A stretch of 26,625 nt of DNA. Origin: a virus. Made by a program: the position numbers and the translations under genes. Location of the stretch: IMG/VR virus record IMGVR_UViG_3300032038_000557, positions 1 to 26,625 of that record; one strand, written 5' to 3'. The notes beneath the pieces are model-generated. The model made no database searches, was not told where the DNA came from, and worked only from the letters and a program-made list of their open reading frames with translations. Shown here in pieces: positions 6,101 to 23,251 of this stretch (position 1 is the first letter of the stretch; each line of letters opens with the position of its first letter).

Positions 6101-7088
6101 CTCTAATCACTAAAGTAGAAGTGGCAGTAGCATATCCATTTAAAGAAGCAGTAGCTGTTAATTCACTACCATAATCTACAGTAACTGTAACTGATCCAGT
6201 ACCAGTTTCTGTTTGTTCTACACTACCGTAAATGTAAGATACGTTAATTGTCGCATTAGATGGCGTTGAATTAATTGTAACAGTATTAGATAAAGGAGAA
6301 GGTATAAACGTTTCTGAACGATCTGAATCTGTCATTAAATAAACGTTGGAATCACTTTGATAACCAGTTCTTGAATAAGAAGCAGTAACATAAGTATTCT
6401 GATCAACATCTAAACTAGCAACATCAGTTCTAGTAACCTCTATAGAAGTTCCATTCCTAGTACCAGTTAGAGTAATTTCAAATCCAGTATCAGTAGAATC
6501 TTTAGCATAACGGAATGTCACATAAGGTACTAATTCAAAAGCAATTAAATCATCTCCATTAGCAACCCAAGTTCCACTTCTCGAAGTATATCCAACAGCA
6601 GATGCTCTCCAATTAACTGTTTCTCCAGCTACACTAGTTGTATAAATTCATTCAGAAGATTCAACACCATTAAAGTAAACTTTAATATCAGAAGCACCAG
6701 ATGGAGCTATTTGAAGTGTATAAGTAGTGGGAGTGTACTGACCTCAAGTAACTTCATCCTCGTCAATATTATCAACATCACACATAGCTCCAGTAGGAGT
6801 AATGCTATTAGTGTATCTGTTTTGGAAAGCATCATATATATAACAATCTTGAAGATTGATTGTCATAGGTTCTGTAGAGTAAGTGAATGTTAACTCTGCA
6901 TCCCTAGTATAGTCATAAGGACTACTGCTGACAATGTACATATTCTCTCCATCTGGAATAGCTTCGTAAATAAACAAATTCTTTAGAGTTACGATATCTC
7001 CAACTGTAGGAGGAGTAGTTCCCATTCCATTACTTGAGAACGATATTGTTAGGTTATTAGCACCACTTGATGAAAAATTAATAATCAT
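3102..7088 (-). CDS. Giant tail fiber or receptor-binding protein, 1328 aa, with tandem PEGA-like beta-sandwich repeats and two BACON-like domains
   Basis: Track fragments 3102-3623, 3762-4022, 4119-4481, 4782-5204, 5226-6521 and 6744-7088 are in one frame. All gaps translated: 11 in-frame TGA (3675, 3690, 3762, 4035, 4119, 4497, 4524, 4782, 5226, 6648, 6744) and no TAA or TAG. There are about 7 repeats of roughly 70 aa of the type SxPxxAxIxV...G.G...V....G......S..GY. BACON-like segments read W-IHITS...ANTGSSARTWTVTG...AIVTQ and W-FTQVS...ATNATSSARNTSFVVSA...TVTITQ. Stop is TAA at 3102-3104. Confidence 0.8.
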
Positions 7089-7089
7089 T

Positions 7090-7569
7090 TTATAATTCAG
7101 TTAAAATTAAATCTAATCTATTCTCAACATCTTTTGTAACACCTTGATTAAGTATCGATAGATCAAGGTTTTGTAAGGTATCTCCAAGTATGTTCTTTGG
7201 AGGAATACCTTCATTAGCTATCTTTCTTGATATTAAAAACGTAAGTTGTTCAGTAGTAGGAAGTTTGCCATTATACGTATAAGGAATCACTGGTTTAATC
7301 TGAATCCATCTTCTAATGGCATCTATATTCGGAAAAGATCCTGGTTCTCTACCATACTCAACATACTTTCAATAATCTTCTAAGGAAAGATAAAGTTCAT
7401 AGATTCCATCCTCTGTCTTAACGAAACAAGAAAGGGAATTACCCAATCTACCACTAGCATTGATATTTTGTTCAGCAAGTTTTCTTCTATAAGTATCAAT
7501 TACCTCATTCCCATAAGCATTAAGAATGTTAGTAAGGATAGAATTAAGTGTTAATGCGTCTTCTTTCAT
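7090..7569 (-). CDS. HK97 gp10-like neck or tail-completion protein, 159 aa
   Basis: Fragments 7090-7290 and 7369-7569 are in frame and separated only by TGA at 7369. The motif SGRLGNS...YELYLSLEDY-W-KYVEYGREPG resembles the YA.YVE.G end of the gp10 family as I remember it. Stop is TAA. Confidence 0.6.
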
Positions 7570-7876
7570 TCGTTTATTTGATTCTTTTCTTCTTGTGCTT
7601 TGTCTTTACAATAACATACTACATTTAAGTAAACTAAAGCAGGAAGCCGATAAACGTCCCATCAAGTAGTTCTAGTAGTTTCAGCAACAGTGTTTACCCA
7701 ATCAATTCATCCTCATCTTTGATTAAACGAATTGCTTTCCTCGTCTCCACCATCCTCTTTAGAAGAGCTACCCTCTTTGGCATCTCCTTCGTTTTTCTTA
7801 GCATCTTTCTCATCTCTCTTTCTGAAGAGTATAGGGTATTGAGAGTTAATCTGTTTAACAAGTGAAGAAAAAAAAA
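7551..7876 (-). CDS. Candidate -1 frameshift extension of gene 7694-8299 (GT-like product)
   Basis: The -1 frame is open from 7958 to the TAA at 7551 under the TGA=Trp code. It has no ATG, GTG or TTG downstream of 7914. It fills the otherwise unexplained 124-nt gap 7570-7693. A T9 run at 7868-7876 sits in the zero frame as TTT TTT TTT. Confidence 0.4.
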
Positions 7877-8299
7877 CATTACATCAGAATAAACATTCAT
7901 AGTTAAGTTTTCTCATAAGAAGTCAGCATTCTTTGATTCTCCATATTGCTCTCCATCTTTAATAAAGATACAATCAAGAATATTCTTTCAATCTTGTCTT
8001 TTCAGAAGTTCTTGAAAATCAATATATTGTGCAGTAGTAACCTTTTGTAAATCAAGAACTGGTCTAAACTTTTGATCTTTAACTAAATAGACAGATTTAG
8101 CTGGCTTCTCAGTATATTTCTTCTCAAGGAAGGATAGTTCATTTATATAGTAAGCTACTTTACTTACTGGAATGTCTCCCATCTCCACTCCTCAAATTGT
8201 CTTTATGAGTTGTTCTTGTGCTTCTAATGGATCTTCCGTATTAGCAAGTATATCAACAATCTCATAGTATTGTTTAATCGTTATATCATCTCACTTCAT
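7694..8299 (-). CDS. Hypothetical protein, 201 aa, candidate tail assembly chaperone-like
   Basis: ATG 8297-8299 overlaps the TerL TAA by 1 nt. Fragments 7694-7900 and 7988-8188 are in frame. In-frame TGA at 7913, 7988, 8192 and 8291. Stop is TAA at 7694-7696. Confidence 0.7.
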
Positions 8300-9507
8300 T
8301 ATATAATAGATATTTTATAGTTCCCTCTGTTGGTAAAGATAGAATCTCAACAAATAGCAGTAGCCATAACAGTATCATCTTTATAACCAGAAGGAGCATT
8401 ATAAGTTATTTTACCAGAACGAGTTGTTTCAGCAGAATACATTCTCAGTTCCTTTAATAGTTCATTATCTCTAACTAATTGAATATCACCATTTTCTAAA
8501 GCAACTCCCAATTTATCAATTATCTTGTTCTTAGTAGTATTAGATGTATTGAACTTTATGATACGTTGTTTAGTCTTCTTCTGCAACATATCAAAGTAAA
8601 CATTACCGATAGAATTGGATTCCACTGTAATCTTTATTGGATTGTACTGATTGATTAGATTGGCAATAACGTTTACTTGCTCTGTGGGAGTCTTATCATT
8701 AAAGTATTTGATAAAGACCATATGTCCAGTATGCGTAATACAACAAACGGCTGTATTATCTTGTCCATTACCAGATCCTCAGTCAATTCCAAAATATAGA
8801 TTTTCTGTAAGATCAGCTGGTTCACTTTCAATACAACCTTCAATATTCGTAAACAGAGAACCATCATCATTTAAGAATTGACCTAATATCTCAGTAGTGA
8901 ACTTCTTTCTTGAATAGGTTCTCTTATAAAATTCAATTTGTTCTTCACTAATCAATTCAGAACGATCATATAAAGATCAGTCAAAGCTTCTCTTCTTATC
9001 AGAATCTGGTTCCGAATAAGTAGTATAAAAGTATCCATCCGAAGTAAGTGGAGTGGAACAGATTAGGATGCTTGCTTTATGTACTGTAGTTGTTGGTAAA
9101 AGGATGTCTATTACATCTTGTGGAATAAAAGCACATTCATCTAATACAAGTATTCCAGAAACTGTATATCCTCTAAGTGCATCTTTTTGTTCTGCAGACT
9201 TAAAGAGTATTTCAGATTTGTTCTTAAACCTTATATGAAGTAAAGACTCATTTGCTTTCTCTATTATTCCAGAAGCATCTAATAACTTGACAAACTCATT
9301 AAACATCTTTCTAGATTGAGCTAGTGTTGGTTCAACTACTATAGAAGTAGTTTTAGGTAAAGAGCAAGCTTTCAGTAGTTCAGCTAGACAGAGAAAGGAT
9401 TTACCACTCTGTCTAGGACTGAGAACTACTGCAATCTTTCCTTTGATGTCAAATCAATCATAAACTTCCTTTTGCCATTCATAGAGTTTAGGAAATACTA
9501 TCTTCAT
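8299..9507 (-). CDS. terL: Terminase large subunit, 402 aa
   Basis: Walker A SPRQSGKS, Walker B ILVLDECAF, and nuclease motif FGID-W-GSGNG. Fragments 8347-8721 and 8977-9306 plus their gaps are in one frame, with TGA at 8347, 8779, 8977 and 9454 and no TAA or TAG. Start is ATG 9505-9507 and stop is TAA 8299-8301. Confidence 0.9.
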
Positions 9508-10185: not shown

Positions 10186-10521
10186 TTAGTTAATAAGTAG
10201 TTTTTGTATCTTATTTAAAAGCCATATAAAGCCATCTTTAGCAATAATTAGTATCGTAGCTATCACTGGAGTCATAAACGCAAGGAAAGCCACATAACAT
10301 AGCATTAATCAAGAAAAAGTTCCAGTAATAAGAAGATAAAGGATTCCTCCTCATCAAGTGGAACATAAAGAACAACCGATTAAAGGAATCCTTCATCCGT
10401 TATATGGAATCTTTGGGAATAGTCTTTTTCAGACAAATTCAGATAAAGAGTAGATTCCACCAGATAAATCAATGCAAAAGACAATTATAATAGTAATGTA
10501 AAGTAAGGTTAAGAAGTGCAT
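10186..10521 (-). CDS. Small multi-pass membrane protein, 111 aa, DUF1360-like CxxCxxWW motif
   Basis: Hydrophobic segments LTLLYITIIIVFCI, ILYLLITGTFSWLMLCYVAFLAFMTPVIATILII. Five in-frame TGA (10309, 10351, 10354, 10393, 10429), including a tandem TGA-TGA. Only one TGG. Stop is TAA. Confidence 0.7.
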
Positions 10522-11167: not shown

Positions 11168-11314
11168 TTAGCTAAGTAGTTTAAGTTCATAATCTTTAAT
11201 TTCAAAAGGGAGTAAAGAGAGAAGATAATCATCTTCCACTGTAGTATTATCAGAAGTTACTATTACTCTATCTCCCAATTCTGTTTCTTCAATTCAGATA
11301 TCGAAGTTAATCAT
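11168..11314 (-). CDS. Hypothetical small acidic protein, 48 aa
   Basis: ATG 11312-11314 overlaps the end of the upstream gene. TGA at 11294. Stop is TAA at 11168-11170. Confidence 0.45.
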
Positions 11315-11705
11315 AGTCAAATCATTTAAAGGAGTTAAGATTAAGTTCCACTTTATCGGATCATTGTCATTCACCACCAAAATCAGTAGTCTGTCTAGCA
11401 TACATTGGAGTAACCTTCAAATAAGTAGAAGCAGGATCAGTAGTAACACATCATCTATCATTAAATAATATTATAAGTATTCCTTTATTTGAAATTAACT
11501 CTTTGAATTTATCTAAATTGACTATAGTAGTTGGATATTGATTGGAATCAAATCTCCTTCGTTTAAGTTCTATTTCGTATCTTTTGTCTTTCCAGATGAA
11601 TCAACCATCCATTCTGGAGAATTGATCTTCATATCAGTAGAGTTGAATTCCTCACTTATCTAAGAAGATCTGTTCAATTTGTTGTTTAGAAATTGTATCA
11701 GTCAT
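11307..11705 (-). CDS. First gene of the early operon, hypothetical protein, 132 aa
   Basis: ATG 11703-11705 lies about 20 nt downstream of a -7 promoter box. Seven in-frame TGA (11322, 11361, 11367, 11451, 11601, 11634, 11652) against one TGG. Stop is TAA at 11307-11309. No ORF is reported here in the standard-code track. Confidence 0.7.
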
Positions 11706-11725
11706 AGGCTATTAGTTTTACAAGA

Positions 11726-11756
11726 CAAATATAACAAATACTTATGACTTTTCAAA
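11726..11756 (-). promoter_or_regulatory. Bacteroidota-type promoter P1 (-33 TTTG, 19-nt spacer, -7 TATATTTG)
   Basis: Minus strand reads TTTG (11756-11753), a 19-nt spacer, then TATATTTG (11733-11726). This matches the Bacteroides -33 TTTG / -7 TAnnTTTG consensus. It has the same architecture as P2 at 14219-14249. Confidence 0.6.
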
Positions 11757-11802
11757 ATATTTTAATAAGTTTTTTAAAATATTTATTAATCAAAGGTTCA
11801 CA

Positions 11803-11880
11803 TTACTATTAGATCTTTTATTATATATTTTTTATTGATACGGGATATTCGGTACTACCTAAGCAGGATATTTGGTACTT
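11803..11880. repeat. Regulatory repeat R1 (about 80 percent identical to R2), carrying two 13-nt sites GGATATTCGGTAC and GGATATTTGGTAC
   Basis: Aligned by eye with 14064-14143. Sub-sites are at 11843-11855 and 11866-11878, 23 nt apart in direct orientation. Confidence 0.65.
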
Positions 11881-11946: not shown

Positions 11947-11983
11947 CAGGATAGTCGAGGGTTCGAGTCCCTTCCGCACCGCA
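11947..11983 (+). other. tRNA 3'-end fragment, candidate attP core
   Basis: T-arm GAGGG-TTCGAGT-CCCTT (11957-11973) is followed by the acceptor 3' strand CCGCACC and discriminator G. The matching 5' strand GGTGCGG and an anticodon arm are absent upstream. It lies 115 nt upstream of the integrase gene. Confidence 0.6.
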
Positions 11984-11992
11984 GAATAACTG

Positions 11993-12027
11993 AAAAGGTA
12001 CTTTGGAGTAGATCTAAGGTACCTTTT
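11993..12027 (+). terminator. Hairpin just downstream of the tRNA-like fragment
   Basis: AAAAGGTAC (11993-12001) pairs with GTACCTTTT (12019-12027) around a 17-nt loop. It could terminate the reconstituted tRNA gene after integration. Confidence 0.35.
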
Positions 12028-12097
12028 CTTATTAGAAATGGTTCTTAGTTGCGACTGATTTGAAATGGAATGAAAACTAGTCTCAATTATTATTGTT

Positions 12098-13225
12098 ATG
12101 AGAACCACATTCAACATTGGTTTCGTTTGCAGACCATCAAAAGCAAACAAGTTAGGATTAGCTCCAGTAGAGCTAACAATCATCATTAATGGCTCTAGAG
12201 CTTACTTAACGTTACAAAGAAAAGAGAATCCAAGTAAGTTCAAGAAGTTGATTGCACAATCTAAACAGAATGATCTTAAGACTTATCTGAATCTGGTAGT
12301 TGATAAGATCAATGAAGCACAATTAGAACTACTGAGAAAGGGAATTCCAGTAACAGTAGAGGGATTGAGAGAATTCATTAAGAATGGTTGTACATCTTCT
12401 TATAAGGTAAGTAATCTCTTCTCTGATTACTTGATTCTATTAAGGAATAGAATAGGTGTAGATCTCACATATCCAGTTTACAGAAAGTATGAGATAGTTA
12501 GAGATTTGTTCTTATCCTTTACTGGAAATGTTGAATTATCATCTATCACTCCCTCTATCATTACTTCATTCTACATTCATCTAAACAAGCAATATCTTCC
12601 CACTACATCAGCAGGAATGATGACTAAGTTGAAGACAGTTATGCTTTACGCATTCAACAATGCTTTAATTAGACACAATCCTTTTTCGACTACTAAGATC
12701 GTTAAGAGAGTCAAAGAAGTTGAATTCTTAACAGAGAAAGAAATTCAAGTAATCAAGAAAAAGAACTTAATCTCTAGATTAGATAAAGTGAGGGATCTAT
12801 TTCTGTTTCAATGCTTTACTGGATTAAGTTATGTAGATATGTCTTTATTAACTAAAGATGATTTCAAAGTAAACGAATACAATCAAATCTTCATTCATAA
12901 AGAAAGAGTAAAGACTGGAGTTTCATTCACTACTGTATTACTGGAAGATGCTGTTAGAATAATCAAGAAATACGATTATCAACTTCCAGTAATAAGTAAT
13001 CAAAAGTACAATGGCTATCTAAAAGAGATTCAAGATATCTGTTGTATCAAGAAATCCCTTCATTCGCACATAGGAAGACACACAGCAGCCACTTATCTAC
13101 TGAATAAGGGAATACCCTTAGAGACAGTTTCAAAGATCTTAGGACACAGTAATATCAAGCAAACACAACATTATGCTAAATTGGTTGATAAGTCTGTCTT
13201 TGCTGCAATAAATAAAATTTCATAA
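12098..13225 (+). CDS. int: Tyrosine recombinase / phage integrase, 375 aa, Bacteroidota-style arm-binding N-terminus
   Basis: Intact ORF under any code. C-terminal catalytic motifs HSHIGRHTAATYLL and LGHSNIKQTQHYAKL (R, H-x-x-R, H/Y pattern). Stop is TAA. The protein contains no Trp at all, so neither TGG nor TGA occurs. Confidence 0.9.
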   Translation: MRTTFNIGFVCRPSKANKLGLAPVELTIIINGSRAYLTLQRKENPSKFKKLIAQSKQNDLKTYLNLVVDKINEAQLELLRKGIPVTVEGLREFIKNGCTSSYKVSNLFSDYLILLRNRIGVDLTYPVYRKYEIVRDLFLSFTGNVELSSITPSIITSFYIHLNKQYLPTTSAGMMTKLKTVMLYAFNNALIRHNPFSTTKIVKRVKEVEFLTEKEIQVIKKKNLISRLDKVRDLFLFQCFTGLSYVDMSLLTKDDFKVNEYNQIFIHKERVKTGVSFTTVLLEDAVRIIKKYDYQLPVISNQKYNGYLKEIQDICCIKKSLHSHIGRHTAATYLLNKGIPLETVSKILGHSNIKQTQHYAKLVDKSVFAAINKIS

Positions 13226-13279: not shown

Positions 13280-13320
13280 AGTACAGCTCCGTTGTGATAA
13301 TGCAGCTGTACTTTTCTTTA
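13280..13320 (+). terminator. Rho-independent terminator of the integrase gene
   Basis: AGTACAGCT (13280-13288) pairs with AGCTGTACT (13304-13312), followed by TTTCTTTAT. Confidence 0.6.
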
Positions 13321-13336
13321 TAGGAATCGAACCTAT
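13320..13336 (-). other. Isolated tRNA T-arm-like element (ATAGG-TTCGATT-CCTAT)
   Basis: Perfect 5-bp stem plus the canonical GGTTCGATTCC T-loop on the minus strand. The flanks did not fold into a cloverleaf: the acceptor would be AAAGAAA with no partner, and there is no anticodon arm. Confidence 0.4.
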
Positions 13337-13362: not shown

Positions 13363-14058
13363 TTAAATAATAGAGGTAAGAGACTTGTCGCTGATAAGTC
13401 TCTTTTTTCTTGGACATCCACCAAGACACCATCTTTCAAAAGCTTTTGGATTATCAGCTTTATCGATGTAAGAGAAATAAAAACTCTTAATCGTAACTGA
13501 TTGATAATCAATCAGCTCCATCTTCATTTCAGATATTGATTTTGAACAGTCATTCATAATTAATTGATTATCAATAACATAACCACTATTGTTTTTCCTA
13601 ATAAAACCCTCTCTCAAACCCTCTCCAAGTAGCTTAAAAAAGGTACTCCTACCTATTTTTAATTGCTTAATAAGCTCATTATTACTCAAACCAATTCAAT
13701 TTCCTTCTCCAAATCTGAATTCCGCTAATCTTAAAATGAAAGCAATCATCTTCGGATCCAACTTGAATATATCATTACTAATCCACATAAAATCCCTATT
13801 CTGGTTAACTACTTGATAGCTAACCAGATTTCTTCCCTTAGTATGATGTGAAGTTTTCTTTACTAGACCTTTCTTTACTAAAAGACTAGTGATCTTACTG
13901 ATAGTATCTAAATCTTTAATTCCAGTCTTCTGAGATATCTTCTCTCTTGTTATATGACTTTCTCCTTTTCAGTTTGAATAGCAGCTTAAAGTGGCATACA
14001 CTAAATACTCTCTATTACTTAAACCATTATGCTTCTTAACCTTAAATGAATTTTTCAT
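13363..14058 (-). CDS. DNA-binding protein with two winged-helix/HTH-like segments, 231 aa; candidate lysogeny or early regulator, or replication initiator
   Basis: ATG 14056-14058. Fragment 13363-13689 extends upstream in frame. I translated the whole region: TGA at 13696 and 13969, no TAA or TAG. HTH-like segments are SHITREKISQKTGIKDLDTISKITSLLVKKGLV and LSNNELIKQLKIGRSTFFKLLGEGLREGFI. Confidence 0.7.
13378..13410 (+). terminator. Second plus-strand hairpin terminator inside the 3' end of the convergent gene
   Basis: AAGAGACTT (13378-13386) pairs with AAGTCTCTT (13396-13404), followed by TTTTCT. It may act bidirectionally between int and the convergent gene 13363-14058. Confidence 0.4.
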
Positions 14059-14063
14059 TGAAC

Positions 14064-14143
14064 TTACTATTAGATTTTTTATATTATATCTTTTATTGAT
14101 ACTGGATTTTCAGTACCACTGATACCTGATTTTCGGTACTCAC
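14064..14143. repeat. Regulatory repeat R2, carrying GGATTTTCAGTAC and TGATTTTCGGTAC
   Basis: Sub-sites at 14104-14116 and 14127-14139, 23 nt apart as in R1. R2 abuts the ATG of gene 13363-14058. Confidence 0.65.
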
Positions 14144-14176: not shown

Positions 14177-14218
14177 AATCTTAAATTGAATATATGGCAA
14201 ATATTCTTTTCGATGAAA

Positions 14219-14249
14219 CAAATATAACAATTATTTTGAATAATTCAAA
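14219..14249 (-). promoter_or_regulatory. Bacteroidota-type promoter P2 (-33 TTTG, 19-nt spacer, -7 TATATTTG)
   Basis: Minus strand reads TTTG (14249-14246), a 19-nt spacer, then TATATTTG (14226-14219). The local sequence ACAAATATAACAA is shared with P1. Confidence 0.55.
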
Positions 14250-14257
14250 ATTATTCA

Positions 14258-14290
14258 ATAAAAAAAGAGTCTATTATATAGACTCTTTTC
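14258..14290 (-). terminator. Rho-independent terminator ending the late/lysis operon
   Basis: Perfect 9-bp stem AGAGTCTAT / ATAGACTCT (14266-14274 and 14278-14286) with a 3-nt loop. An A-run and a T-run flank it, so it could be bidirectional. It overlaps the TAA of the last late gene. Confidence 0.75.
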
Positions 14291-14489
14291 CAATATGTAT
14301 CTTTCCACATTCTTTACATACATAAGCTACATATCCACACTTCTTGAAATGTACGTTTATGTAATCTAATGCTTCTTCTTCATCTTTAAATGCTCTTTTA
14401 ACCTTTCACTTACCATTCTTCTTGGTTCAGTGACATCTGTAGTGAGTATGTTTGTTGCAATCAGATCTACTTCTCGAAATCATAGTCAT
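14274..14489 (-). CDS. Small Cys/His-rich (zinc-ribbon-like) protein, 71 aa, last gene of the lysis cassette
   Basis: ATG 14487-14489 overlaps the end of the endolysin gene. Cys/His pattern DCNKHTHYRCH...KKCGYVAYVCKECGKIH. TGA at 14406 and 14427. Stop is TAA at 14274-14276. Confidence 0.55.
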
Positions 14490-14976
14490 TCAATCTATTC
14501 ATTCAACCTCTTAAGAATACTCTTTGAGAAGGATTTCTCCTAACTATCTCATAAAAGAAATCTCTTCTTGCGTCTCATATCTTCTTAAATAAATCTTCTT
14601 GATTAGCCTCATTTAAGGCTCTTAAAGTGATTGGACCTATAATTCCATCAACTCTTACTTCAAGGAGCTTCTGTAGCCGTTTAATTGCTGTTATTGGACC
14701 ACTTCCTCAAGCTCAATCAACTAATATATTAGCTATCGATTGATTGACTATTCTATCTCCTTTCATCTTGTCCCAATAACCAATTTTAAAGATTAAATCT
14801 CATTGTCCATCAGTAATCCTTCTTAAATCCTCTACTGTCTTATCTAAACCAAAATACTTTCTAAAGACAGCAATAGTGATTCCCTTATTAGTAGCTCCCC
14901 CTTTATCTAATGGATGATTTGAGAATCCTCCTTCTCATTTAAGAATCTTCGGTTTTAGTTTCCTGTAATCCGCCAT
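14467..14976 (-). CDS. Endolysin: GH108-type N-acetylmuramidase with a PG_binding_3-like C-terminal domain, 169 aa
   Basis: No ORF is reported here in the standard-code track. Codon-by-codon translation gives [34 protein letters not shown]...GYWDKM...ILVD-W-A-W-GSGP...[10 protein letters not shown]...FLRG-W-MNRL. Six TGA (14503, 14575, 14707, 14713, 14800, 14935) against one TGG. Stop is TAG at 14467-14469. Confidence 0.85.
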
Positions 14977-15397
14977 ATCCCATTTCAGTTAATATAGAAT
15001 CAAATGGTCTATTATCAAACAGATCTCCATCTTCCTTATGAGATTCTATGTAACGTTGTCCCATTCCCTTACAAGGTTTTCTCAATGGACAAGTTCCATT
15101 AGCACAGAATCCCACACTACACAAGATTAAATCATTATTTAAGTCATTTATCTCTTTATGTAATTGCTCTATTGTTTCTACATCAGAAGAATGAAATCCT
15201 CTCATAGTTTCCACTTCAGAAGATACCACTTCAAGAGCTCTCTGTAATGTTTCTACTGCTATTGATTCAGAAGTATTCTCCGCTTGACTTGCTTGAGCTT
15301 CTGCCAATCTTTTATTGGCTCTCCAGTTAACGAATATTGCTATTCCACCACCAGAGATAAATCCAATAATAGTAGTAATTATTGTTGTCCAATCCAT
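14939..15397 (-). CDS. Single-pass membrane protein, 152 aa; holin or spanin candidate
   Basis: N-terminal TM segment TTIITTIIGFISGGGIAIFV, then a coiled coil and a Cys-rich C-terminus. It lies immediately upstream of the endolysin and overlaps it by 38 nt. No TGA. Stop is TAA. Confidence 0.5.
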   Translation of the reverse strand: MDWTTIITTIIGFISGGGIAIFVNWRANKRLAEAQASQAENTSESIAVETLQRALEVVSSEVETMRGFHSSDVETIEQLHKEINDLNNDLILCSVGFCANGTCPLRKPCKGMGQRYIESHKEDGDLFDNRPFDSILTEMGYGGLQETKTEDS

Positions 15398-15822
15398 TAT
15401 TCATACTCCTCCACACATAATCCGTTTAGTGGAAGTTCAAATGTGATTGTCAAATAAACTCCTGCACAAACATCTTTGAATCTCTGATAGAATACTCTAA
15501 ACAATCCCGGTCTCAGTAAAGCTGCTTCTGGATACTCTTTATCGAAAGTATTGATTATGTTATTTAATACCGTAATACCTTCTGAATGAATCATATTCTG
15601 ATTCTCTTGTGTTTCATCCCATCTGCTTATAAAGAACAAATTCAAAGAATACTCTATTGTATCTTCATTTAATCTAAACTCATTTGGTGTTATGTAGAAC
15701 ACATTATAATCTATATCTGGCAAGCTATTCAGTTCGTAGAGATCTTTACTACCAGCAAAGTTCACATTAGCTTGCCTTAAAGCAATTTTCTTTAAGTTAG
15801 AAAGTAATTCATAGTAAGTCAT
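15397..15822 (-). CDS. Hypothetical virion protein, 141 aa, possible head-tail joining
   Basis: Intact ORF with ATG 15820-15822. Its TAA overlaps the next ATG by 1 nt. The function is inferred only from its position after the portal and connector genes. Confidence 0.6.
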   Translation of the reverse strand: MTYYELLSNLKKIALRQANVNFAGSKDLYELNSLPDIDYNVFYITPNEFRLNEDTIEYSLNLFFISRWDETQENQNMIHSEGITVLNNIINTFDKEYPEAALLRPGLFRVFYQRFKDVCAGVYLTITFELPLNGLCVEEYE

Positions 15823-15825
15823 AAT

Positions 15826-16428
15826 CTAATGTTTTTTACTTGGTCAATTCAATCCTCTCCAACACTCAAAGCAAGGAAAGATTACCTTTCCTCTATATCC
15901 TCCTAACCAAATAGGACTATTCGTAGAACTGTATAGTTGAGGATAAACATCTACTGGTCAATCAAATGAACGTAATTCTTCAAATTCTAATCTATTACCA
16001 ATCAAGTAATCCTGTAATCTCTCTTTAAAGAAGTTAGCTTTGTGATCGTAATAACTCTTTAAACTGTTTATATTCTTACTCTCAGAATGACTTAACTTTT
16101 CATCATCTGTCTGTCCTACACCGAAGTTTCCTATCTTATAACTTACTGGAACTATTATTTCTTTAAGGACAAAGAAACTTAAGAATGGTTGTATATAATC
16201 ATCTAATAGCTCTTTATACTTCTCATTCTCTGCATTATCTATTGTCTTATCAAACACCTTTCTCTGCAAAGATCTAAGTAATTCAGTACCAATGGTTTGC
16301 TGTAAATCAATAGATTGTGCTAACTTTATTGCTGTCTGTATATAGTTTCCACTAACGTTAAGATCCAGAACAGTTTCCGATTTCAAATAGTTCTCGGATA
16401 TTAATAATACATTCTTGTAATTATCCAT
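15826..16428 (-). CDS. Hypothetical protein, 200 aa, possible head-tail connector
   Basis: Fragment 15958-16428 continues in frame through TGA at 15958 and 15844 to TAG at 15826-15828, which lies 3 nt before the next ATG. Confidence 0.7.
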
Positions 16429-16439
16429 TTTAGTTGATT

Positions 16440-17510
16440 TTAATTGTTAATTGAGTCATCTTCCCATTTGATAATGAATGGACTGATAATCAATGAATTA
16501 GCACCAATAATAGTATTAAATGCACTCTCTATTTCTTTCTGAATTGGAGAAATAACAGTCTTATTATATAACTTGAAAGCAGCTTCAAACTCTACTGCTG
16601 AGAATCCATTGTTCTCTGGATTTAATCCGAATAAGCAAGGATTTGCTCTAAAAGCAATAAAGATTTGCTCTCTAGACCTCTTAGAAAGAGTTTCATATTT
16701 CTTATCGAAATCATCACCATCTAATCTCTCTACAGTTACTCTATTGTCTTCTGAATCATTATAAGCGATTAAGATTCTTCCTGCATTCTGGAAACCACCA
16801 AACTTCTCATTTATTTGTCTTTCTATCTCTTCTTGCTGTTCTTCGTTTGGTTGCCCATTATTGAAAGAAATCACCACATTAGACATAAAGCCATTATTGA
16901 TGTTGTTTAGATGAAATTCATTGATACATTTCTCTATTTCACAAGGAATGACAGCAGCACCATATAAAGGAATAGGATACACACTTCTTGTAACATTCCC
17001 TTTACTGTAATATATGCTTCTAGGAGCAGGATGCTCTGGATCAAACTTTGGTATTTCAATATACTTTGCTCCCCAACTATTCCAATCATTTGAATAGTAG
17101 AACTCAGTATTCTTATCATTTGATCTCAATTTCATAAAATCAATATGATTCAATCACTTTACTCTACCATCTAAACTTCTAATGATTTCAATTGCAAATC
17201 CACCGAATATCAGTTTATCTATTAAGAGTTTCCTCAACAGAGTATTGATTGTATCTCCACTCTCATTCACTACACCAGAAGGAAAGTAAGTACACTGTGC
17301 ATCATCTCCACAAGCAAAATCAACAGTACCGTTGATGATAGATTGTAGAGTGGCTACACTATTATATAAATCCCAAAGATAGTTGGGATAAGTATTTGTC
17401 TTTCCTCAATAGATCGGTTTCTTTGTCCTTACTTTAATTTCATCTGGTGAAGGAATATTGTTCACTACTATAGGATCTATCGCACTTAATTGAACTGTCT
17501 TATTCTCCAT
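16440..17510 (-). CDS. Portal protein, 356 aa
   Basis: ATG 17508-17510. Fragment 16440-17153 extends upstream in frame through TGA at 17154 and 17406 (context PIY-W-GK) with no TAA or TAG. The portal-like core reads FGGFQNAGRILIAYNDSEDNRVTVERL...REQIFIAFRANPCLFG. Confidence 0.8.
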
Positions 17511-17814
17511 ATGCTATATAACTATTTGATTTATTGTATGTTAGCTTACTTTCTTTCATTCCTATTCTAAGTAATCCAGTAGCTACTATCTTCGTTGGAT
17601 ATCCAATTAACAAACTGTTAAAGATGTTGTTTACGTCTATCTCTATATCTACTTGCTCTGGATTCTCTATTAGAAGATATTGATATTCAGCTTCTTTTGG
17701 ATCCTCCAGTTCTATTTGAAACTTATAGTATAATCCATCTGGATTCAAATCTTCCAGAATGTATTTATCAGTTTCTTTCGTTGTTGTGTTTTGTAATAAG
17801 AATGTATAATTCAT
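17500..17814 (-). CDS. Hypothetical protein, 104 aa
   Basis: Intact ORF ending in TAA. It overlaps the portal start by 11 nt. Confidence 0.6.
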   Translation of the reverse strand: MNYTFLLQNTTTKETDKYILEDLNPDGLYYKFQIELEDPKEAEYQYLLIENPEQVDIEIDVNNIFNSLLIGYPTKIVATGLLRIGMKESKLTYNKSNSYIAYGE

Positions 17815-17880
17815 AAAAATTCTATGTAAAATTGAGTTAAACTTCTTTAGATTAAAATATAATTGCCATCTAATTAGTAA

Positions 17881-17910
17881 GAAAAAGGGACTCCTAATAG
17901 GGAGTCCCTT
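17881..17910 (-). terminator. Rho-independent terminator inside the late region
   Basis: 10-bp stem AAGGGACTCC / GGAGTCCCTT (17885-17894 and 17901-17910) with a 6-nt loop. A T-run follows on the minus strand. Confidence 0.65.
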
Positions 17911-17916
17911 AATCAG

Positions 17917-18060
17917 TTAAATCTTAGCTAAAATGGCATTCAACTTTGCATCTACTTCAGCTTTAGTGTAGTGATCTCTTTCACTGTTAGTAGTAATTAC
18001 TCCAGCTTCTCTATAAACGTAAAACGTTTGTGGCTCTGTAGTATTTTTAAGAATTATCAT
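17917..18060 (-). CDS. Small hypothetical protein, 47 aa
   Basis: ATG 18058-18060 overlaps the upstream gene end. Sequence: MIILKNTTEPQTFYVYREAGVITTNSERDHYTKAEVDAKLNAILAKI. Stop is TAA at 17917-17919, just before the terminator. Confidence 0.4.
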   Translation of the reverse strand: MIILKNTTEPQTFYVYREAGVITTNSERDHYTKAEVDAKLNAILAKI

Positions 18061-18274
18061 TTTCTTTCTCGCTTTCTAGTTCCTTTAGCCAATTGTAAGT
18101 GGCATCTTCTTCTGCAGTAATCTCTCTGTAAACAGAAGTATCAGTAGTTAAAGGACAATTTGCTATTTTGGAGCTACTGTAGTTTTTGATATCTTCTGTG
18201 TCTTTATATGTTGTTATATAGTGATCATCATCAGCGATAATCTCTATAAAGTATTTTTTAGTATTGATTTTCAT
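18047..18274 (-). CDS. Hypothetical acidic protein, 75 aa
   Basis: Intact ORF ending in TAA. Confidence 0.55.
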   Translation of the reverse strand: MKINTKKYFIEIIADDDHYITTYKDTEDIKNYSSSKIANCPLTTDTSVYREITAEEDATYNWLKELESEKENDNS

Positions 18275-18286
18275 AGTCTAAATGTT

Positions 18287-21085
18287 TTAAGCCGTCATAA
18301 TAGTCCATCTCTTTGCAGTAGCAATAGCAATTTCCTCTTCACTTAAGAGAGCATAAGATGTTGCATTAAGATATAACTGAGCATCAGTTACAGTAGTATC
18401 ATCTGGAGCTGCTAAACCGTTGATCACATTCATAATGGATTCTTTAGTTAATGCAGTGAGTTTAGTTAGGATGAGTCGATGATCAACACCTCCGCTTCCA
18501 ACAAACGCTTTACCAAGATTAGTGAAACCACCAAGAGTTGTTAAGCTATTATATTTTTGATTGCGAGAAGCACCAAACGGATTCGCTTTAGCTACAGAAG
18601 TACAATCCATCGCTCCAATAGAAGTATAGCTAAAGGAAGCATTTGAGTTATTTGAGCCAAACATACTGGTAATATCAAAAGCATTTGGGCTATTGAATGC
18701 AGGAAGGCTAGTTATTCCAGTACAATCATAGAACATATAATCCATACCCTCAACGTTACTATAATCAAATTGAGGAATTGCAGTAAGGTTGACACAACTC
18801 TGAAACATACTTGTCATCGTAGTTGCTTTACTTGTATTATACGCAGGAACTGTTGACAATAGAGCACAACCCTTAAACATATCTCTGAAGTCAGTTACAT
18901 TTGCTGTATTGAAAGTTGGTGCAGTCTGTAAAGTTGAACAGTTTTGGAACATTTGCATACAATTCTGAAGTGAATCAGTATTAGTCAACGTTACATTTTT
19001 AAGATTCTTACAACCATAGAACATTTGATAAGCTGATCCAACGTCACCACCGCCAGAAGCATTCGCTAAATCAACCGATGCTCTTCTCAAACTAATGCAT
19101 CCACCAAATAAAGAATAGGAGGTAGCCTCTGAGGAAGGATTTATAGTTCTAAACTGTAGATCTGGTGCATACACTAAATTAACACAACCTTGGAAGAATC
19201 CAACACTACTATTTATAGTTTCTGTTATATCAACCTTCGGAGCATATACCATAGCTGGTTTATAACTCCAATACGTTGAATCATCTTCTGGAGTATAATT
19301 CTCTAAAAGATTAGCAGTAATAGCAACATCACTATTTATACCAACACTCGCTACATCTTCGCAGGTCCAACCCATTGATTCCCAATCAACGCATCCACCA
19401 CCAGAAGAAGGAACGTTAACAGTTATTGAAACACCATCAAAGTAATCAAACTGTTCTCCTTGATAATCAGAAGGAGTATAAGTATATGTTCCATTCTCTG
19501 TGATGGTTTCCTCTACATAACCAGTATGAGGATCATCTCCACCTCCACATTCAGCTTGTCCTTGAGCATAACCAGCATCATATCCTGCTGTATAACCTTC
19601 ATCAGTACCTTCAACACCAAGAATAGTTACACCAGATAAGATATTCTCTGGCTGTATGTTAGCATCAATTGAAGCAGTTACACCAGCAATAGTAACTTGC
19701 GAAAGAGCATCATAACCTTGATCTGGAGTTATAATCTGTTGAGCAGTAGAAGGATCAGCTGTCTTTGCTTGTAAAGTGGTTACAGAAGTAGGAACATTAA
19801 CGGTTATGCTTGCCGATCCATAGAAGTCAGCATCACTTTGCGTAGGATCAAATTCATAAGTTCCATTAGCAGTAATAGTTTCCTTTAAGTCAATAGATGA
19901 TGGTTCTGGAACAGCAACTGTTATGGAAGCACTATCAAATCCATCATACTGACTACCTTGATAATCAGAAGGATCGAAATTATATGTTCCGTTTTCAGTA
20001 ATAGTTTCTTGTAAAGCGGCTGTTTCAAATGTAGGGCATTCTGATTGTCCTTGAGCATAACCTTCATCCCAACCTGCTTGATAACCAGCATTTGTACCAG
20101 AAACACCAAGAATACTAACTCCTTCAATGATATTCTCCGGCTGTATATTATCATCAATTCCAGCAGTAACTGAATTGACTGTTACTTTATTTAATCCATC
20201 ATAATCATCATCAGCGGTAACTTCTATTGGAATTGTATTAGGAATGACTGTCTTACTTTGAAGTCTAGGTTCAATATCAACTTCCACTTGATTCCAACCA
20301 TCTTCTCTTGTAAAGACACCGTTCTCAGTAAAGGTAGTGGAAGTGAGTTTAGCTTTCTGTTCTGCAACACCAGCACTATGACCTTCATCATAGTAAGCAG
20401 AAGTATCTATGTTAGTAGTAATTTCAACACTTGATAAACCATCGTAGTTAGCATCTGGAGTAACAGCAGTAACTCCATTCTCTGTTATAGTAACAGTTTT
20501 CTCTTGAGTTGAGAAAGTAGGAATAGGGACATTAACAGATACATCTGAATAACCATCTTCTCTTGAATAATCACCATTAGCAGTTATATCAAGATGAGTA
20601 AGTTTAGCTTTCTGTTGTTCAGTACCAGCTCTATATCCTTCATTATAATATTTATCTGTATTAATATTGGTAGTAACGGATACACTAGATAAACCGTCAT
20701 AATTAGCATCTGGAGTTACTGCAGTCACTCCGTTTTCTGTAACAGTAATTGATTTCTCTTGAGTGGAGAAAGTGGGAATAGGAACATTCACATTAACTGA
20801 ATTGTAACCATCTTCTCTATCATACTGTCCATTAGCAGTAACTTCTAAAGAAGTAAGTTTTGCTTTTTGTTCCTCAATACCATCTTCTTTCCCTTCATTA
20901 TATAAAGCTTCATCACTAACTTCTACAGTGACTTTGCTATAACCGTCATAACCTTCCTCTGGAGTATAGACACCATTCTCAGTAGCAGTCAATTCAGTGA
21001 GAGTTGCTGAATTACCTTCGGTGTTCTGTCCAGCTCTTGTAGTAGTGTTAAGAGCGGTTTTTGGAGTTGTAAATTTAATTGCCAT
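18287..21085 (-). CDS. BspA-like / DUF285-type leucine-rich-repeat surface protein fused to tandem repeat modules, 932 aa; probable adhesin or receptor-binding protein
   Basis: The C-terminal third has repeats of the type NTxNVTxMxxMFxxCxxLxxxP (FQGCVNL, FGGCISL, FYGCKNL, FQNCSTL, FKGCALL, FQSCVNL, FYDCTGI). The N-terminal part has about 85-aa tandem repeats (QKAKLT...TENGV...DANYDGLSSV). There are 932 codons with 6 TGG and no TGA. Confidence 0.8.
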   Translation of the reverse strand: MAIKFTTPKTALNTTTRAGQNTEGNSATLTELTATENGVYTPEEGYDGYSKVTVEVSDEALYNEGKEDGIEEQKAKLTSLEVTANGQYDREDGYNSVNVNVPIPTFSTQEKSITVTENGVTAVTPDANYDGLSSVSVTTNINTDKYYNEGYRAGTEQQKAKLTHLDITANGDYSREDGYSDVSVNVPIPTFSTQEKTVTITENGVTAVTPDANYDGLSSVEITTNIDTSAYYDEGHSAGVAEQKAKLTSTTFTENGVFTREDGWNQVEVDIEPRLQSKTVIPNTIPIEVTADDDYDGLNKVTVNSVTAGIDDNIQPENIIEGVSILGVSGTNAGYQAGWDEGYAQGQSECPTFETAALQETITENGTYNFDPSDYQGSQYDGFDSASITVAVPEPSSIDLKETITANGTYEFDPTQSDADFYGSASITVNVPTSVTTLQAKTADPSTAQQIITPDQGYDALSQVTIAGVTASIDANIQPENILSGVTILGVEGTDEGYTAGYDAGYAQGQAECGGGDDPHTGYVEETITENGTYTYTPSDYQGEQFDYFDGVSITVNVPSSGGGCVDWESMGWTCEDVASVGINSDVAITANLLENYTPEDDSTYWSYKPAMVYAPKVDITETINSSVGFFQGCVNLVYAPDLQFRTINPSSEATSYSLFGGCISLRRASVDLANASGGGDVGSAYQMFYGCKNLKNVTLTNTDSLQNCMQMFQNCSTLQTAPTFNTANVTDFRDMFKGCALLSTVPAYNTSKATTMTSMFQSCVNLTAIPQFDYSNVEGMDYMFYDCTGITSLPAFNSPNAFDITSMFGSNNSNASFSYTSIGAMDCTSVAKANPFGASRNQKYNSLTTLGGFTNLGKAFVGSGGVDHRLILTKLTALTKESIMNVINGLAAPDDTTVTDAQLYLNATSYALLSEEEIAIATAKRWTIMTA

Positions 21086-21099
21086 ATTAACTTTATATT

Positions 21100-21137
21100 A
21101 AAAAAGCCGAGCAGAGCAAATCTGCCCATACTCGGCT
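21100..21137 (-). terminator. Rho-independent terminator after the major tail gene
   Basis: AGCCGAG (21105-21111) pairs with CTCGGCT (21131-21137), with an inner GCAGA/TCTGC helix. A T6 run follows on the minus strand. Confidence 0.65.
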
Positions 21138-21159
21138 CATTATTAAACATTAGTACAAA

Positions 21160-21729
21160 TTAGCAAGCATTTGCTACGTTACCTTTCATAGCAGTAACTG
21201 CTTCTGCAGTAAGTTCATAAGGATAAGTCTTGGAATCGGTAGAAAGAGTGATTAAGTAAGCATTCTGATCACCTTTTGCAGTACCAGTGTTACCAGAACC
21301 AGCAGATGCACTTACATAATCATCTAAACCAAGATACCAGTATTTACCATTGGAATCCTCAACAACTGCCACCACTTGACCAATAGACATAGCTGCGATT
21401 TCGAGTCTCTTAGCAGTTTCCATCTTGGTAAAGACAAGAGAAAGCTCATTTGCAACATAGTTGGTTCCAGTAGTTTCATCTACATTAAGAGTGGAAGTTA
21501 AACTTCCAGTCTCTTTTCTAAACTGATATTCGTACCATTTTGCATCAGCTTTAAGAGTGATTGCGGAAATGGCAAGATCCCTATCATCATTATCGGAAAC
21601 TGGATCAACGGTAACTGCAGTTACATCAGAGTAACGAGTTAACCAAACTCTTTTGATACCACCGAGAGATGACTGGCAATCCATACAAATACCAGCAAGG
21701 GTTATACTTGAACAATTAAGATTAGGCAT
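21160..21729 (-). CDS. Putative major tail protein, 189 aa
   Basis: Intact ORF followed by a strong terminator. The pattern KWYEYQFRKETGSLT...ELSLVF...VVAVVEDSNGKYWYLGLDD...GTGTAKGDQNAY resembles siphovirus major tail proteins as I recall them. No TGA. Confidence 0.55.
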   Translation of the reverse strand: MPNLNCSSITLAGICMDCQSSLGGIKRVWLTRYSDVTAVTVDPVSDNDDRDLAISAITLKADAKWYEYQFRKETGSLTSTLNVDETTGTNYVANELSLVFTKMETAKRLEIAAMSIGQVVAVVEDSNGKYWYLGLDDYVSASAGSGNTGTAKGDQNAYLITLSTDSKTYPYELTAEAVTAMKGNVANAC

Positions 21730-21757
21730 AGTAAAAAATTAATTAAATGTTTATAAA

Positions 21758-22669
21758 TTAAACAGTTGCGAGAACAACCTCGTTAGGGAATGCAACCTGA
21801 ACACCGAAGTTGAATTCGATATCAAGACGGAATTCTCTATTATCTTGTGAGTACCAGAACTCAAACTTCTCTTGATCATCCTGCATATCACAGCCATAGA
21901 AGAAATTCTTCTCTAACTGACCAGCAACGATGGAATTGGTTCCATTAAGTCCGTTAACAGCAATAACCTTAACAGAAGTACCAGGAATGATAACCTCATC
22001 AACTGGAGTACCAGGATTGTAGTGATATAAGTTCTTCTCAACGAGAGCCTGCACAAAGAGACGGAATTTGTCTGCACCCATAACGATAGAGGAACCTTCA
22101 AGAACCTCAACGGGAATTGCATTGTAAACAGCAAGAACTGCATTGTAAACATCAGTAGCAGTGGTAAGAGTAACAGTAACCTTGTTAACACCAGTGGCTG
22201 CATTAAGGATCTTTAAGAGACCATCAACTTTATTGAGGTTTTCATCTGCACTGTCAGTATCACCCTGCCAAATAGCCTTCTCAACAGCAGCATTGACACT
22301 CTTGATGACTTCGTTGATGAAATTCTCCTCGAAAGGAAGAGTCTTCTGACCAGCAGCAACTCTAACAGCATACTGAGTTCAGTATTTGAGCATTTCCTTA
22401 TCACAGTAAGCCATATTGATCTTTATGTGACCAGTGTGAAGGATTCTCTGAGAAAGAGTCTGTGCACCACCTTCTTCCCAACCGCAAGTAAGTCCGTCAC
22501 CGAACTCAACTTCAGTAGAAAGAAGATTGAGAGCTGCGTCTAATTTAACGCCAGTCTGTAAATTGAAAAGACTAGCAGATTTTGATTTAATAACCGCTTG
22601 AGCGATAAGAGGGAGTCTATGCTGCTCAATGTACGCAGTCATAGAACTAAAAATAGGGTTTGTAGCCAT
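21758..22669 (-). CDS. Major capsid protein, 303 aa
   Basis: Fragments 21758-22081 and 22379-22669 are in frame. I translated 22082-22378 and it is open. The single TGA is at 22379 (context MLKY-W-TQYAV). It lies directly after the protease and scaffold genes. Stop is TAA. Confidence 0.8.
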
Positions 22670-22697
22670 AGTTTAAATAAGTTGTTTTATTAATTAA

Positions 22698-23246
22698 TTA
22701 TTTCCTAGAAGCTTCTTTAATACCCTCTAACATCGCATTGAAATTGCGGTCTTTTGTAGTAAGGTTAGCTTCCTTTTTATCTATCTCTACTTCTGCAGAT
22801 TCAATTGCTGACATTTCACACACTTTCTGAAGTTGTGCATTAGTTTCAACACCAGCAGACTCTACTGCAGCTACTTTCTTAACGAGCTGATCTACAATAT
22901 TATAGAGCTCGTTTATTTCTTTACGGATCTCTTCAATTGCATCTGGAGTGGATTCCACTTCTGGAGTCTCTTCGAGAGCTTCTTCTACTTCTTCAACTTC
23001 TTCAACTTCTTCTTTGGTTTTGATGTCAGTGATGATTCCATCAGCAACTACATATGTTCTGCCATCATCAGCAACATATTCTCCATCAGCAGCAGGAATA
23101 AACTCACCATCAGATTCAACGTAAACAGCGATACCGACAGTAACATCATCTTCTGCATAATTAAGAACAGCATCAGCAGTTCTGATTTCTCCAAGTTGAG
23201 CAAGAAGCTTTTTTAACTCTACTTTAAGTTTAGAAAATTTACTCAT
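22698..23246 (-). CDS. Scaffolding protein, 182 aa
   Basis: Acidic helical protein with EEVEEVEEVEE, located between the protease and capsid genes. No Trp codons. Confidence 0.6.
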   Translation of the reverse strand: MSKFSKLKVELKKLLAQLGEIRTADAVLNYAEDDVTVGIAVYVESDGEFIPAADGEYVADDGRTYVVADGIITDIKTKEEVEEVEEVEEALEETPEVESTPDAIEEIRKEINELYNIVDQLVKKVAAVESAGVETNAQLQKVCEMSAIESAEVEIDKKEANLTTKDRNFNAMLEGIKEASRK

Positions 23247-23251
23247 TTGGT

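Follow-up and report, generated by a model that had tools for sequence, protein, structure and literature searches.

Does the minus strand of a small viral genome hide an endolysin gene in which most tryptophan codons are written as TGA, and what kind of host would read such a gene? The question is raised by IMG/VR virus record IMGVR_UViG_3300032038_000557, of which positions 1-26,625 form the window, that is, the whole stretch of DNA analysed here; all positions are window coordinates unless another sequence is named. An earlier note, made from the sequence alone, had proposed at this place a GH108-like muramidase with a PG_binding_3-like tail whose frame contains six TGA codons and one TGG, had regarded the gene as a calibrator for TGA meaning Trp rather than Gly, and had taken the peptidoglycan hydrolase as an argument for a walled host and against wall-less code-4 Mollicutes. 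Our analysis leads us to the reading, with a probability of roughly 0.8, that this gene is the endolysin of a complete, circular, temperate tailed phage of 26,622 bp in which TGA is an ordinary Trp codon, the host being most likely a Bacteroidales bacterium with the standard code.

The hidden gene was found exactly at the coordinates that had been listed for it, including those of its TGA codons (Table 1). Its frame is broken by TGA alone, at codons 14, 59, 88, 90, 134 and 158, and its sole TGG is codon 68 (14773..14775). Under the standard code there is no open reading frame (ORF) of at least 40 residues inside the gene, and its strand yields only pieces of up to 22 residues. The gene is invisible to standard-code annotation, and the genome should be annotated with translation table 4 (code 4, TGA as Trp). 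The ATG at 14976 is supported as the start because the N-terminus, MADxxKL.P.ILKWEGG, is conserved among the homologues.

Since a translation with Trp would by itself favour the hypothesis, we ran the Pfam scans with Trp and then with X, Gly and Cys at the six TGA sites. Both profiles that the earlier note had named for a check of the code-4 translation were matched above their gathering cut-offs, even with X: Glyco_hydro_108 (PF05838), over profile positions 3-85 of 85, with 74.8 bits for X, 82.9 for Trp and 70.3 for Gly (cut-off 21.2), and PG_binding_3 (PF09374) with 53.4 bits for X and 61.1 for Trp (cut-off 24.6). Among the versions scanned, the Trp version had the top score for both domains. 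The family assignment agrees with the match in PHROGs (phrog_315, endolysin, E 8e-41) and with those in PDB (2NR7, E 2e-39; 7DNP, 1e-21; 2IKB, 9e-15; 6V3Z, 1e-11), the best-matching solved homologue, 2NR7, being from Porphyromonas gingivalis. We regard the product as a conventional enzyme, predicted to be an endolysin that combines a GH108 N-acetylmuramidase with a PG_binding_3 domain.

The motif W14-E15-G16-G17-F18, as read from the sequence, is the counterpart of the EGGY motif of the family, the Glu of which has been described as essential (PMC12561047); homologues of the lysin carry either EGGF or EGGY. Glu15 (codon 14932..14934), which directly follows the first TGA, is thus the presumed catalytic acid. 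The same two-domain architecture is known from the coliphage N4 gp61 family and from Acinetobacter ElyA1/ElyA2 (PMC7188820), and also from P. gingivalis 2NR7, Neisseria 2IKB and the Salmonella TtsA-like 6V3Z/6V40. With these enzymes the lysin shares the catalytic E-G-G-aromatic motif and the C-terminal G-W-x-N-R motif. It differs from them, which use the standard code and TGG, in having EGGF instead of EGGY and in its six TGA codons.

To which residue do these codons correspond? A protein search with the X-masked lysin yielded 481 homologues, mostly full length and about 57% identical, the best 120 of which were aligned. In this alignment, Trp fills 94-99% of the columns facing codons 14, 59, 88, 90 and 158, while column 134 is variable (His 60%, Lys 19%, Trp 10%), and Gly is absent from all six. 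The expectation that all six TGA codons stand at family-conserved Trp positions thus holds for five of them and fails for residue 134.

There is a real risk of circularity here, as the nearest match (P0001) evidently stems from this very recoded phage and was translated with code 4. Yet the DNA of homologues on large standard-code contigs (L002, L003, L007, L009) has TGG at every such column, and the lysin gene of L007/L009 has TGA as its stop; because standard-code homologues use TGG there, one of them even ending in TGA, the assignment of Trp is not circular. Nor does TGA occur at any of these positions among 80 lysin loci from IMG/VR. Nine close viral lysins (48-63% identity) have TGG at positions 14, 68, 88, 90 and 158, and the lysins of L148, L150, L151 and L152 have it at all six TGA sites. 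A distant GH108 branch (about 35% identity) has His at position 14, Val at 59 and 90, and Phe at 88. Only two residues, W68 (written TGG here) and W158, are Trp throughout the 80 viral loci, each of which has TGG at position 158. As to the two motifs in which the earlier note had taken Trp as typical of the family, the Trp of G-W-xNR is conserved in all 80 loci, whereas that of K-W-EGG is found in the close subfamily and replaced by His in the distant branch.

When the 20 residues were compared at the TGA sites with a hidden Markov model (HMM) of 119 homologues, Trp scored best with 283.6 bits, followed by Tyr with 267.1, and Gly ranked 19th with 248.8. In a protein of 169 columns, 7 of them dominated by Trp, at least five of six random positions would fall into those 7 with a probability of 1.2e-7. 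Judged by these comparisons, TGA in the lysin gene is to be read as Trp, not as Gly, and the gene does serve as an exceptionally clean internal calibrator, with Trp 16.5 bits above the next residue and 35 above Gly. We dropped the idea that the lysin is specially enriched in TGA, since the excess of its six TGA among seven Trp codons over the rest of the genome is not significant (p=0.079).

L148, whose lysin is the closest viral one (63% identity, all seven Trp as TGG), carries an array of 21 tRNAs at its positions 5308..8307, which includes an ordinary tRNA-Trp(CCA) and no suppressor.

The window as a whole is a complete circular genome of 26,622 bp in rotated form, the CTC that makes up its first and last three bases being counted twice. 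A TGA-free protein of 932 residues encoded in the window is on record on one public contig only, ena:ERZ27256903:k141_3478487 (26,763 bp), which the window, circularised at 26,622 bp, matches with 0 mismatches in 14,636 bases across the junction. Subtracting the assembler k of 141 from 26,763 likewise gives 26,622. The window is thus an assembled circle that has been opened at another point. Its tape-measure gene spans the junction (minus strand, 1..247 continuing into 26622..23906) and encodes 987 residues in the public contig (L001).

Recoding extends through this genome, which has a guanine plus cytosine (GC) content of 33.7%. ORFs cover 0.71-0.76 of the window under code 11 and 0.94-0.95 under code 4, and taking TAG as sense brings no gain in coverage. 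The 29 curated genes contain 64 in-frame TGA and 54 TGG codons and end in 25 TAA, 4 TAG and no TGA; open frames reach 1,328 codons with 11 TGAs, and their interruptions are TGA only, never TAA or TAG. Two very large tail proteins are also among the code-4 proteins. In alignments to relatives, TGA of the window faces mostly TGG, TGA or aromatic codons, and TGG of the window faces TGA of the relatives at several conserved Trp columns; this exchange in both directions at conserved columns is a signature of synonymous codons. The base at +4 after in-frame TGA does not differ from that after other codons (p=0.51), and TGA therefore acts as an ordinary sense codon rather than as a site of context-dependent readthrough. 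The head block (15397..23836), which contains the portal, capsid-like and scaffold-like genes, the 932-residue DUF285 protein and others, avoids TGA (6 TGA to 20 TGG, versus 58 to 34 elsewhere; Fisher p=3.5e-4), and the same head genes are nearly TGA-free in the IMG/VR relatives L130 and L139. Expression level, module history or timing could be the cause.

Table 1. Features of the phage genome, in window coordinates.
Feature	Position	Strand	Basis and remarks
Endolysin gene	14467..14976	minus	169 sense codons; start ATG 14976, stop TAG 14467..14469
In-frame TGA codons of the lysin	14935-37, 14800-02, 14713-15, 14707-09, 14575-77, 14503-05	minus	read from the sequence
GH108 catalytic domain, aa 10-93	14698..14949	minus	Pfam PF05838
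PG_binding_3 domain, aa 97-162	14491..14688	minus	Pfam PF09374; C-terminal to GH108, ends G-W(TGA)-MNRL
152-aa transmembrane protein, candidate holin or spanin	14939..15397	minus	ORF list; function suggested by position and topology
111-aa multi-pass membrane protein, alternative holin candidate	10186..10521	minus	5 TGA, 1 TGG; role inferred
attP core	11954..11986	plus	GTCGAGGGTTCGAGTCCCTTCCGCACCGCAGAA; equals T-arm to acceptor end of Bacteroidales tRNA-Asp(GTC)
Tyrosine integrase	12098..13225	plus	Arm-DNA-bind_5 + Phage_int_SAM_5 + Phage_integrase; 0 TGA, 0 TGG
Terminase large subunit	8299..9507	minus	PHROG 2, E 1e-45; 4 TGA, 1 TGG
Replication-initiator or winged-helix-like protein	13363..14058	minus	PHROG 270/678, weak HTH_36 + DnaD_N; 2 TGA, 2 TGG
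Portal protein	16440..17510	minus	PHROG 11226/33693; 2 TGA, 4 TGG
Major-capsid-like protein	21758..22669	minus	PHROG 11320/1623; 1 TGA, 3 TGG
Tape-measure protein, C-terminal 906 codons	23906..26622	minus	PHROG tape-measure matches

The phage carries its own indication of the host, in the form of a phage attachment site (attP) that lies beside the integrase gene and is followed by a terminator hairpin (11992..12028). A 25-nt attP core has exact matches in at least 120 species-level genomes, nearly all of them gut or rumen Bacteroidales. The carriers among the matches listed belong to Cryptobacteroides, Muribaculaceae, Prevotellaceae, Alistipes and Rikenellaceae and include many metagenome-assembled genomes (MAGs); the few oddly named MAGs with the core are most likely binning errors. 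All 115 extracted matches are the 3' end of tRNA-Asp(gtc), and the identity reaches further by 3 nt on the left and by 1-5 nt on the right. By these matches, 11954..11986 is an attP of the classical kind, which targets a tRNA gene and lies next to the integrase.

At the 111 candidate host loci with at least 4 kb of sequence, the flanking DNA reads as standard code, with a median code-11 ORF coverage of 0.96. A code-4 host among the carriers of the bacterial attachment site (attB) was rejected: the loci with the lowest GC content and the lowest coverage, L104 and L108, are standard-code Bacteroidales with TGA stops and with TGG for every Trp. An integrase 59% identical to that of the phage is inserted beside a tRNA-Arg, where the host side has a code-11 coverage of 1.00 and Bacteroidales-type glycan-utilisation genes. 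Within the 120 tRNA-Asp host loci (8 kb each), no homologue of a phage gene was found save one DUF285 repeat match. These comparisons, and with them the origin of the lysin's best-matching solved homologue from P. gingivalis, point to a gut or rumen Bacteroidales bacterium with the standard code as the most likely host. The proposal of a walled host rather than a Mollicute is thereby upheld, and on stronger grounds than the cell wall alone, because attP equals the 3' end of a Bacteroidales tRNA-Asp and the integrase, with its Arm-DNA-bind_5 domain, is of the Bacteroidota type. It can also be refined, in that the most probable host is a bacterium with the standard code and not a code-4 organism of any kind.

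In L092 (CAVEMP010000257.1, at about 6499, minus strand), tRNA-Asp is represented by its 3' part only, which begins with the anticodon arm and is joined to unrelated sequence; this looks like the att scar of another element that used the same tRNA-Asp site.

The integrase gene is Trp-free and reads alike under code 4 and the standard code. Of its homologues, 118 of 120 (P0121-P0240) are also Trp-free, one of these being from an element without recoding in a standard-code genome, and the two that do contain Trp are longer, probably due to mis-called starts. Because the whole family lacks Trp, the absence of TGA carries little weight here, and the notion that the integrase evolved to avoid TGA as an adaptation was dropped.

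A standard-code host would require some means of decoding TGA, for which we searched the phage itself. ARAGORN found no tRNA and no tmRNA in the complete genome, and an Rfam scan gave no matches at E<=1, so that neither a tRNA nor an element resembling a selenocysteine insertion sequence (SECIS) was detected. Relaxed ARAGORN runs (lower thresholds, intron and mitochondrial modes) produced only low-scoring matches within coding regions, which we discarded as noise, and the non-coding gaps fold into plain terminator hairpins only. Family scans of the genome's proteins yielded no recognisable release factor (RF) or aminoacyl-tRNA synthetase. L006 (70.9 kb), considered as a possible recoded helper that might bring a suppressor, was rejected, as it is not clearly recoded and has only tRNA-Thr and tRNA-Gln. 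Between the replication and integrase genes lies a perfect T-arm-like 13-mer (AGGTTCGATTCCT, 13322..13334, minus strand), followed by a hairpin (13280..13312). No acceptor or anticodon arm can be drawn for it, and ARAGORN and Rfam call nothing there; the 13-mer may be what is left of a tRNA or of another att-like site.

Several searches for relatives of the phage brought little. Megablast with 25 kb of the window matched none of 50,697 GenBank phages, IMG/VR does not contain an exact 41-mer taken from the lysin, a search of IMG/VR with the terminase large subunit revealed no confirmed relative, an exact lookup of the integrase protein found no record, and a scan of JGI metagenomes for the integrase detected relatives at 24-26% only. 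Homologues of the integrase with about 60% identity do occur on many contigs of 30-36 kb. With the capsid protein, fourteen IMG/VR contigs were found at 68-69% identity (16-34 kb, most of them 26-34 kb; about 31% GC), which are partly TGA-recoded, their ORF coverage rising from 0.82-0.90 to 0.95-0.98 under code 4, and which have no tRNA in the stretches examined. Distant capsid relatives (28-35% identity) use the standard code, and recoding is graded among the relatives. One of the contigs with an integrase homologue at about 60%, L234/L235 (about 34 kb), shares its gene order with the window over the region between terminase and portal, at 40-59% identity. It is strongly TGA-recoded (coverage 0.56 vs 0.89) and possesses a similar tRNA-3'-like attP; no tRNA was found in the 21 kb examined. 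At the position equivalent to our lysin, L235 (14762..15199) encodes not a GH108 enzyme but a Peptidase_M15_3 with 2 TGA and 2 TGG, which shows the lysin to be an exchangeable module within this recoded phage family. The nearest relatives of the GH108 lysin are found in standard-code Bacteroidales prophages that carry diversity-generating retroelements (L002-L009).

Recoded temperate phages of this kind have been described before, and none of these findings is new in kind. Stop-codon-recoded phages of standard-code gut Bacteroidetes and Firmicutes were reported by Borges et al. (bioRxiv 10.1101/2021.08.26.457843; Nat Microbiol 2022), among them two small temperate clades, Garnet (34±5 kb) and Topaz (22±3 kb), and prophages integrated in standard-code hosts with the integrase at one end and a host tRNA at the other. 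In that study, integrases avoid the recoded stop and lysis genes are biased towards it, a TGA suppressor tRNA was detectable in 35% of the code-4 phages only, and recoding was proposed to lock both lysis and the switch between lytic growth and lysogeny. The phage studied here resembles Garnet and Topaz in being small (26.6 kb), low in GC and temperate, in its tyrosine integrase free of the recoded stop, in its tRNA-adjacent insertion, in the in-frame recoded stops of its structural and lysis genes, in its predicted standard-code Bacteroidetes host and, like many of them, in having no suppressor tRNA. The likeness to the Garnet clade rests on size, lifestyle and host phylum. The two curated Garnet/Topaz prophages differ from it by reading TAG as Gln and by using tRNA-Met or tRNA-Thr, where our phage reads TGA as Trp and uses tRNA-Asp; moreover, it is the head block here, and not the integrase alone, that is depleted of the recoded codon.

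With the Agate and Jade phages of the same study it shares TGA as Trp, a TGA-rich lysis cassette and standard-code hosts, but these are virulent phages of 127-200 kb, and two Jade genomes have a code-change operon (TGA suppressor tRNA, tryptophanyl-tRNA synthetase, RF1) of which there is no equivalent here. Phages of Mycoplasma and Spiroplasma, native code-4 Mollicutes, likewise have TGA read as Trp and need no suppressor of their own. Their hosts are without peptidoglycan, in contrast to our phage with its peptidoglycan hydrolase, Bacteroidota-type integrase and Bacteroidales tRNA-Asp attP. We rejected a wall-less code-4 Mollicute as the host on these same grounds, namely the peptidoglycan hydrolase with its PG-binding domain, the integrase type and an attP core that, among the matches listed, occurs almost only in Bacteroidales.

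How would the phage live in such a host? Its tyrosine integrase, of the Bacteroidota type, would insert it at the 3' end of a tRNA-Asp(GTC) gene. The ribosomes of a standard-code cell would stop at codon 14 of the lysin and release a 13-residue peptide without the catalytic Glu; almost all other lytic genes would be truncated likewise, while the Trp-free integrase would be read normally. As the first TGA lies one codon before the putative catalytic Glu, active lysin should form only when TGA is decoded as Trp and, provided that the host uses the standard code, the sequence implies that the lysin would be silent until then. The position of this first TGA fits the recoding lock on lysis that has been proposed; by analogy with that literature, the silence of the lysin might be a regulatory lock, and recoding might lock the lytic programme together with lysis. 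Lacking both a signal peptide and a membrane anchor, the lysin, once made, should collect in the cytoplasm and depend on a holin for access to the murein.

A candidate for the holin is the transmembrane protein encoded directly upstream, in which an N-terminal transmembrane helix (MDWTTIITTIIGFISGGGIAIFVNW) is combined with a coiled-coil region and a tail rich in Cys. Its gene contains no TGA from its start, its stop end overlaps the start of the lysin gene by 38 nt, and its family matches are weak only. The alternative candidate, the multi-pass membrane protein, has no family match and is kept at 59% identity in the 34-kb relatives.

Could the TGA codons be explained without TGA having become a Trp codon? 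Code 25, in which TGA means Gly as in phages of Absconditabacteria and Gracilibacteria, does exist in phages (Borges et al.), and one poorly conserved tape-measure column aligns TGA with GGT of relatives. This reading is effectively refuted by the lysin columns with no Gly at all, by the HMM (248.8 vs 283.6 bits, 19th of 20) and by the genome-wide alignments, where TGA faces mostly TGG, TGA or aromatic codons; the GH108 scores in Pfam (70.3 vs 82.9) and the Bacteroidales attP add to this, and we give it practically no credence. The lysin might also be a pseudogene in a decaying prophage, its TGAs being nonsense mutations, as the fragments of up to 22 residues under the standard code would suggest. 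However, only TGA interrupts the frames, it does so at conserved Trp columns (P=1.2e-7) and even in a frame of 1,328 codons with 11 TGAs, the genome was assembled as a free circle, and relatives share the pattern with swaps between TGA and TGG. The codon pattern effectively refutes decay as well, and its probability is negligible. Selenocysteine insertion, or low-level context-dependent readthrough by the host tRNA-Trp, would agree with the lack of a suppressor tRNA, and UGA is the leakiest stop codon and open to misreading by tRNA-Trp. We nevertheless consider it very improbable: with 64 sites and up to 11 per gene, the cumulative yield of low-level readthrough would be negligible, there is no +4 bias and no SECIS-like or other Rfam element, and the aligned residues are Trp, not Cys or selenocysteine.

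It is harder to decide who decodes TGA, the options being a suppressor from the host or from a co-resident phage, an undescribed factor of the phage, and a native code-4 host. In the last case, a walled host would itself use code 4 and the phage, mirroring it, would need no suppressor tRNA. This would account for a complete genome without any tRNA, for the lack of tRNAs in the 21 kb examined of the 34-kb relatives, and for TGA in almost all genes, including the replication initiator and the terminase, never as a stop and in no special context. We nonetheless hold it to be unlikely, given that attP equals the tRNA-Asp of at least 120 Bacteroidales, of which 111 flanks of at least 4 kb, including those with the lowest GC, are standard code. 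To our knowledge, there are no code-4 Bacteroidales. Further, a TGA:TGG ratio of about 1:1 at 34% GC and head genes that avoid TGA are unlike a long-settled native code, the relatives show graded recoding with distant ones in the standard code, and Borges et al. demonstrated such phages integrated in standard-code hosts.

Several observations also weigh against the reading that we prefer, a recoded phage in a standard-code Bacteroidales host. The genome is complete and lacks a suppressor tRNA, though TGA occurs even in its replication and terminase genes, and there is no demonstrated route by which a standard-code cell would express the lytic genes. Neither an integrated copy of the phage nor that of a close relative was found with host flanks, so that attP and the family of the integrase are our only evidence on the host and on its code, and the GC content of the phage is far below that of the candidate host loci (33.7% versus a median of 54%, lowest 39-40%). 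Homology searches of the window's proteins identified no holin. Finally, the idea of a lock gains no special support from the lysin, whose TGA excess is not significant, or from the integrase, whose family is Trp-free.

As to the route of decoding under the preferred reading, it is conceivable, and we propose this tentatively, that the phage switches or borrows the code in a way that has not been described, either through a phage protein or non-canonical RNA acting on the host tRNA-Trp or RF2, or through a suppressor in trans. In the latter case, with strict dependence on a suppressor from the host or from a recoded phage in the same cell, translation would keep the lysis and lytic module locked, as a cassette that is released only when something else has changed the code of the cell. 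A finished, tRNA-free circle of 26.6 kb with a Bacteroidales attP offers a compact test case for how TGA is decoded in the roughly 65% of code-4 phages without a suppressor.

Some further observations concern the remainder of the genome. Downstream of the terminase gene and adjoining it are two code-4 ORFs, 7694..8299 (201 residues) and 7551..7916 (121 residues), which overlap by 223 nt in different frames. Both frames of this region (7551..8299) match proteins of L235, and a programmed frameshift or a wrongly placed start might account for the overlap. Next to attP, the leftward operon opens with a gene (11307..11705) that encodes 132 residues with 8 Trp, 7 of them as TGA. Its product has no family match, yet is found with 53% identity in L235, and shows a D...E-x-K pattern (MDGW...YEIELK) reminiscent of PD-(D/E)XK nucleases. 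One of the two leftward operons begins with this gene, at 11705, and the other with the replication gene, at 14058. The spacers immediately upstream of them contain a direct repeat of 77 nt (79% identity; 11803..11879 and 14064..14140) and a repeat of 44 nt (75%; 11725..11768 and 14218..14261). The repeats include reiterated GATACNGGATNTTCNGTAC motifs and are probably shared promoter, operator or iteron sequences that bracket the integrase and replication module.

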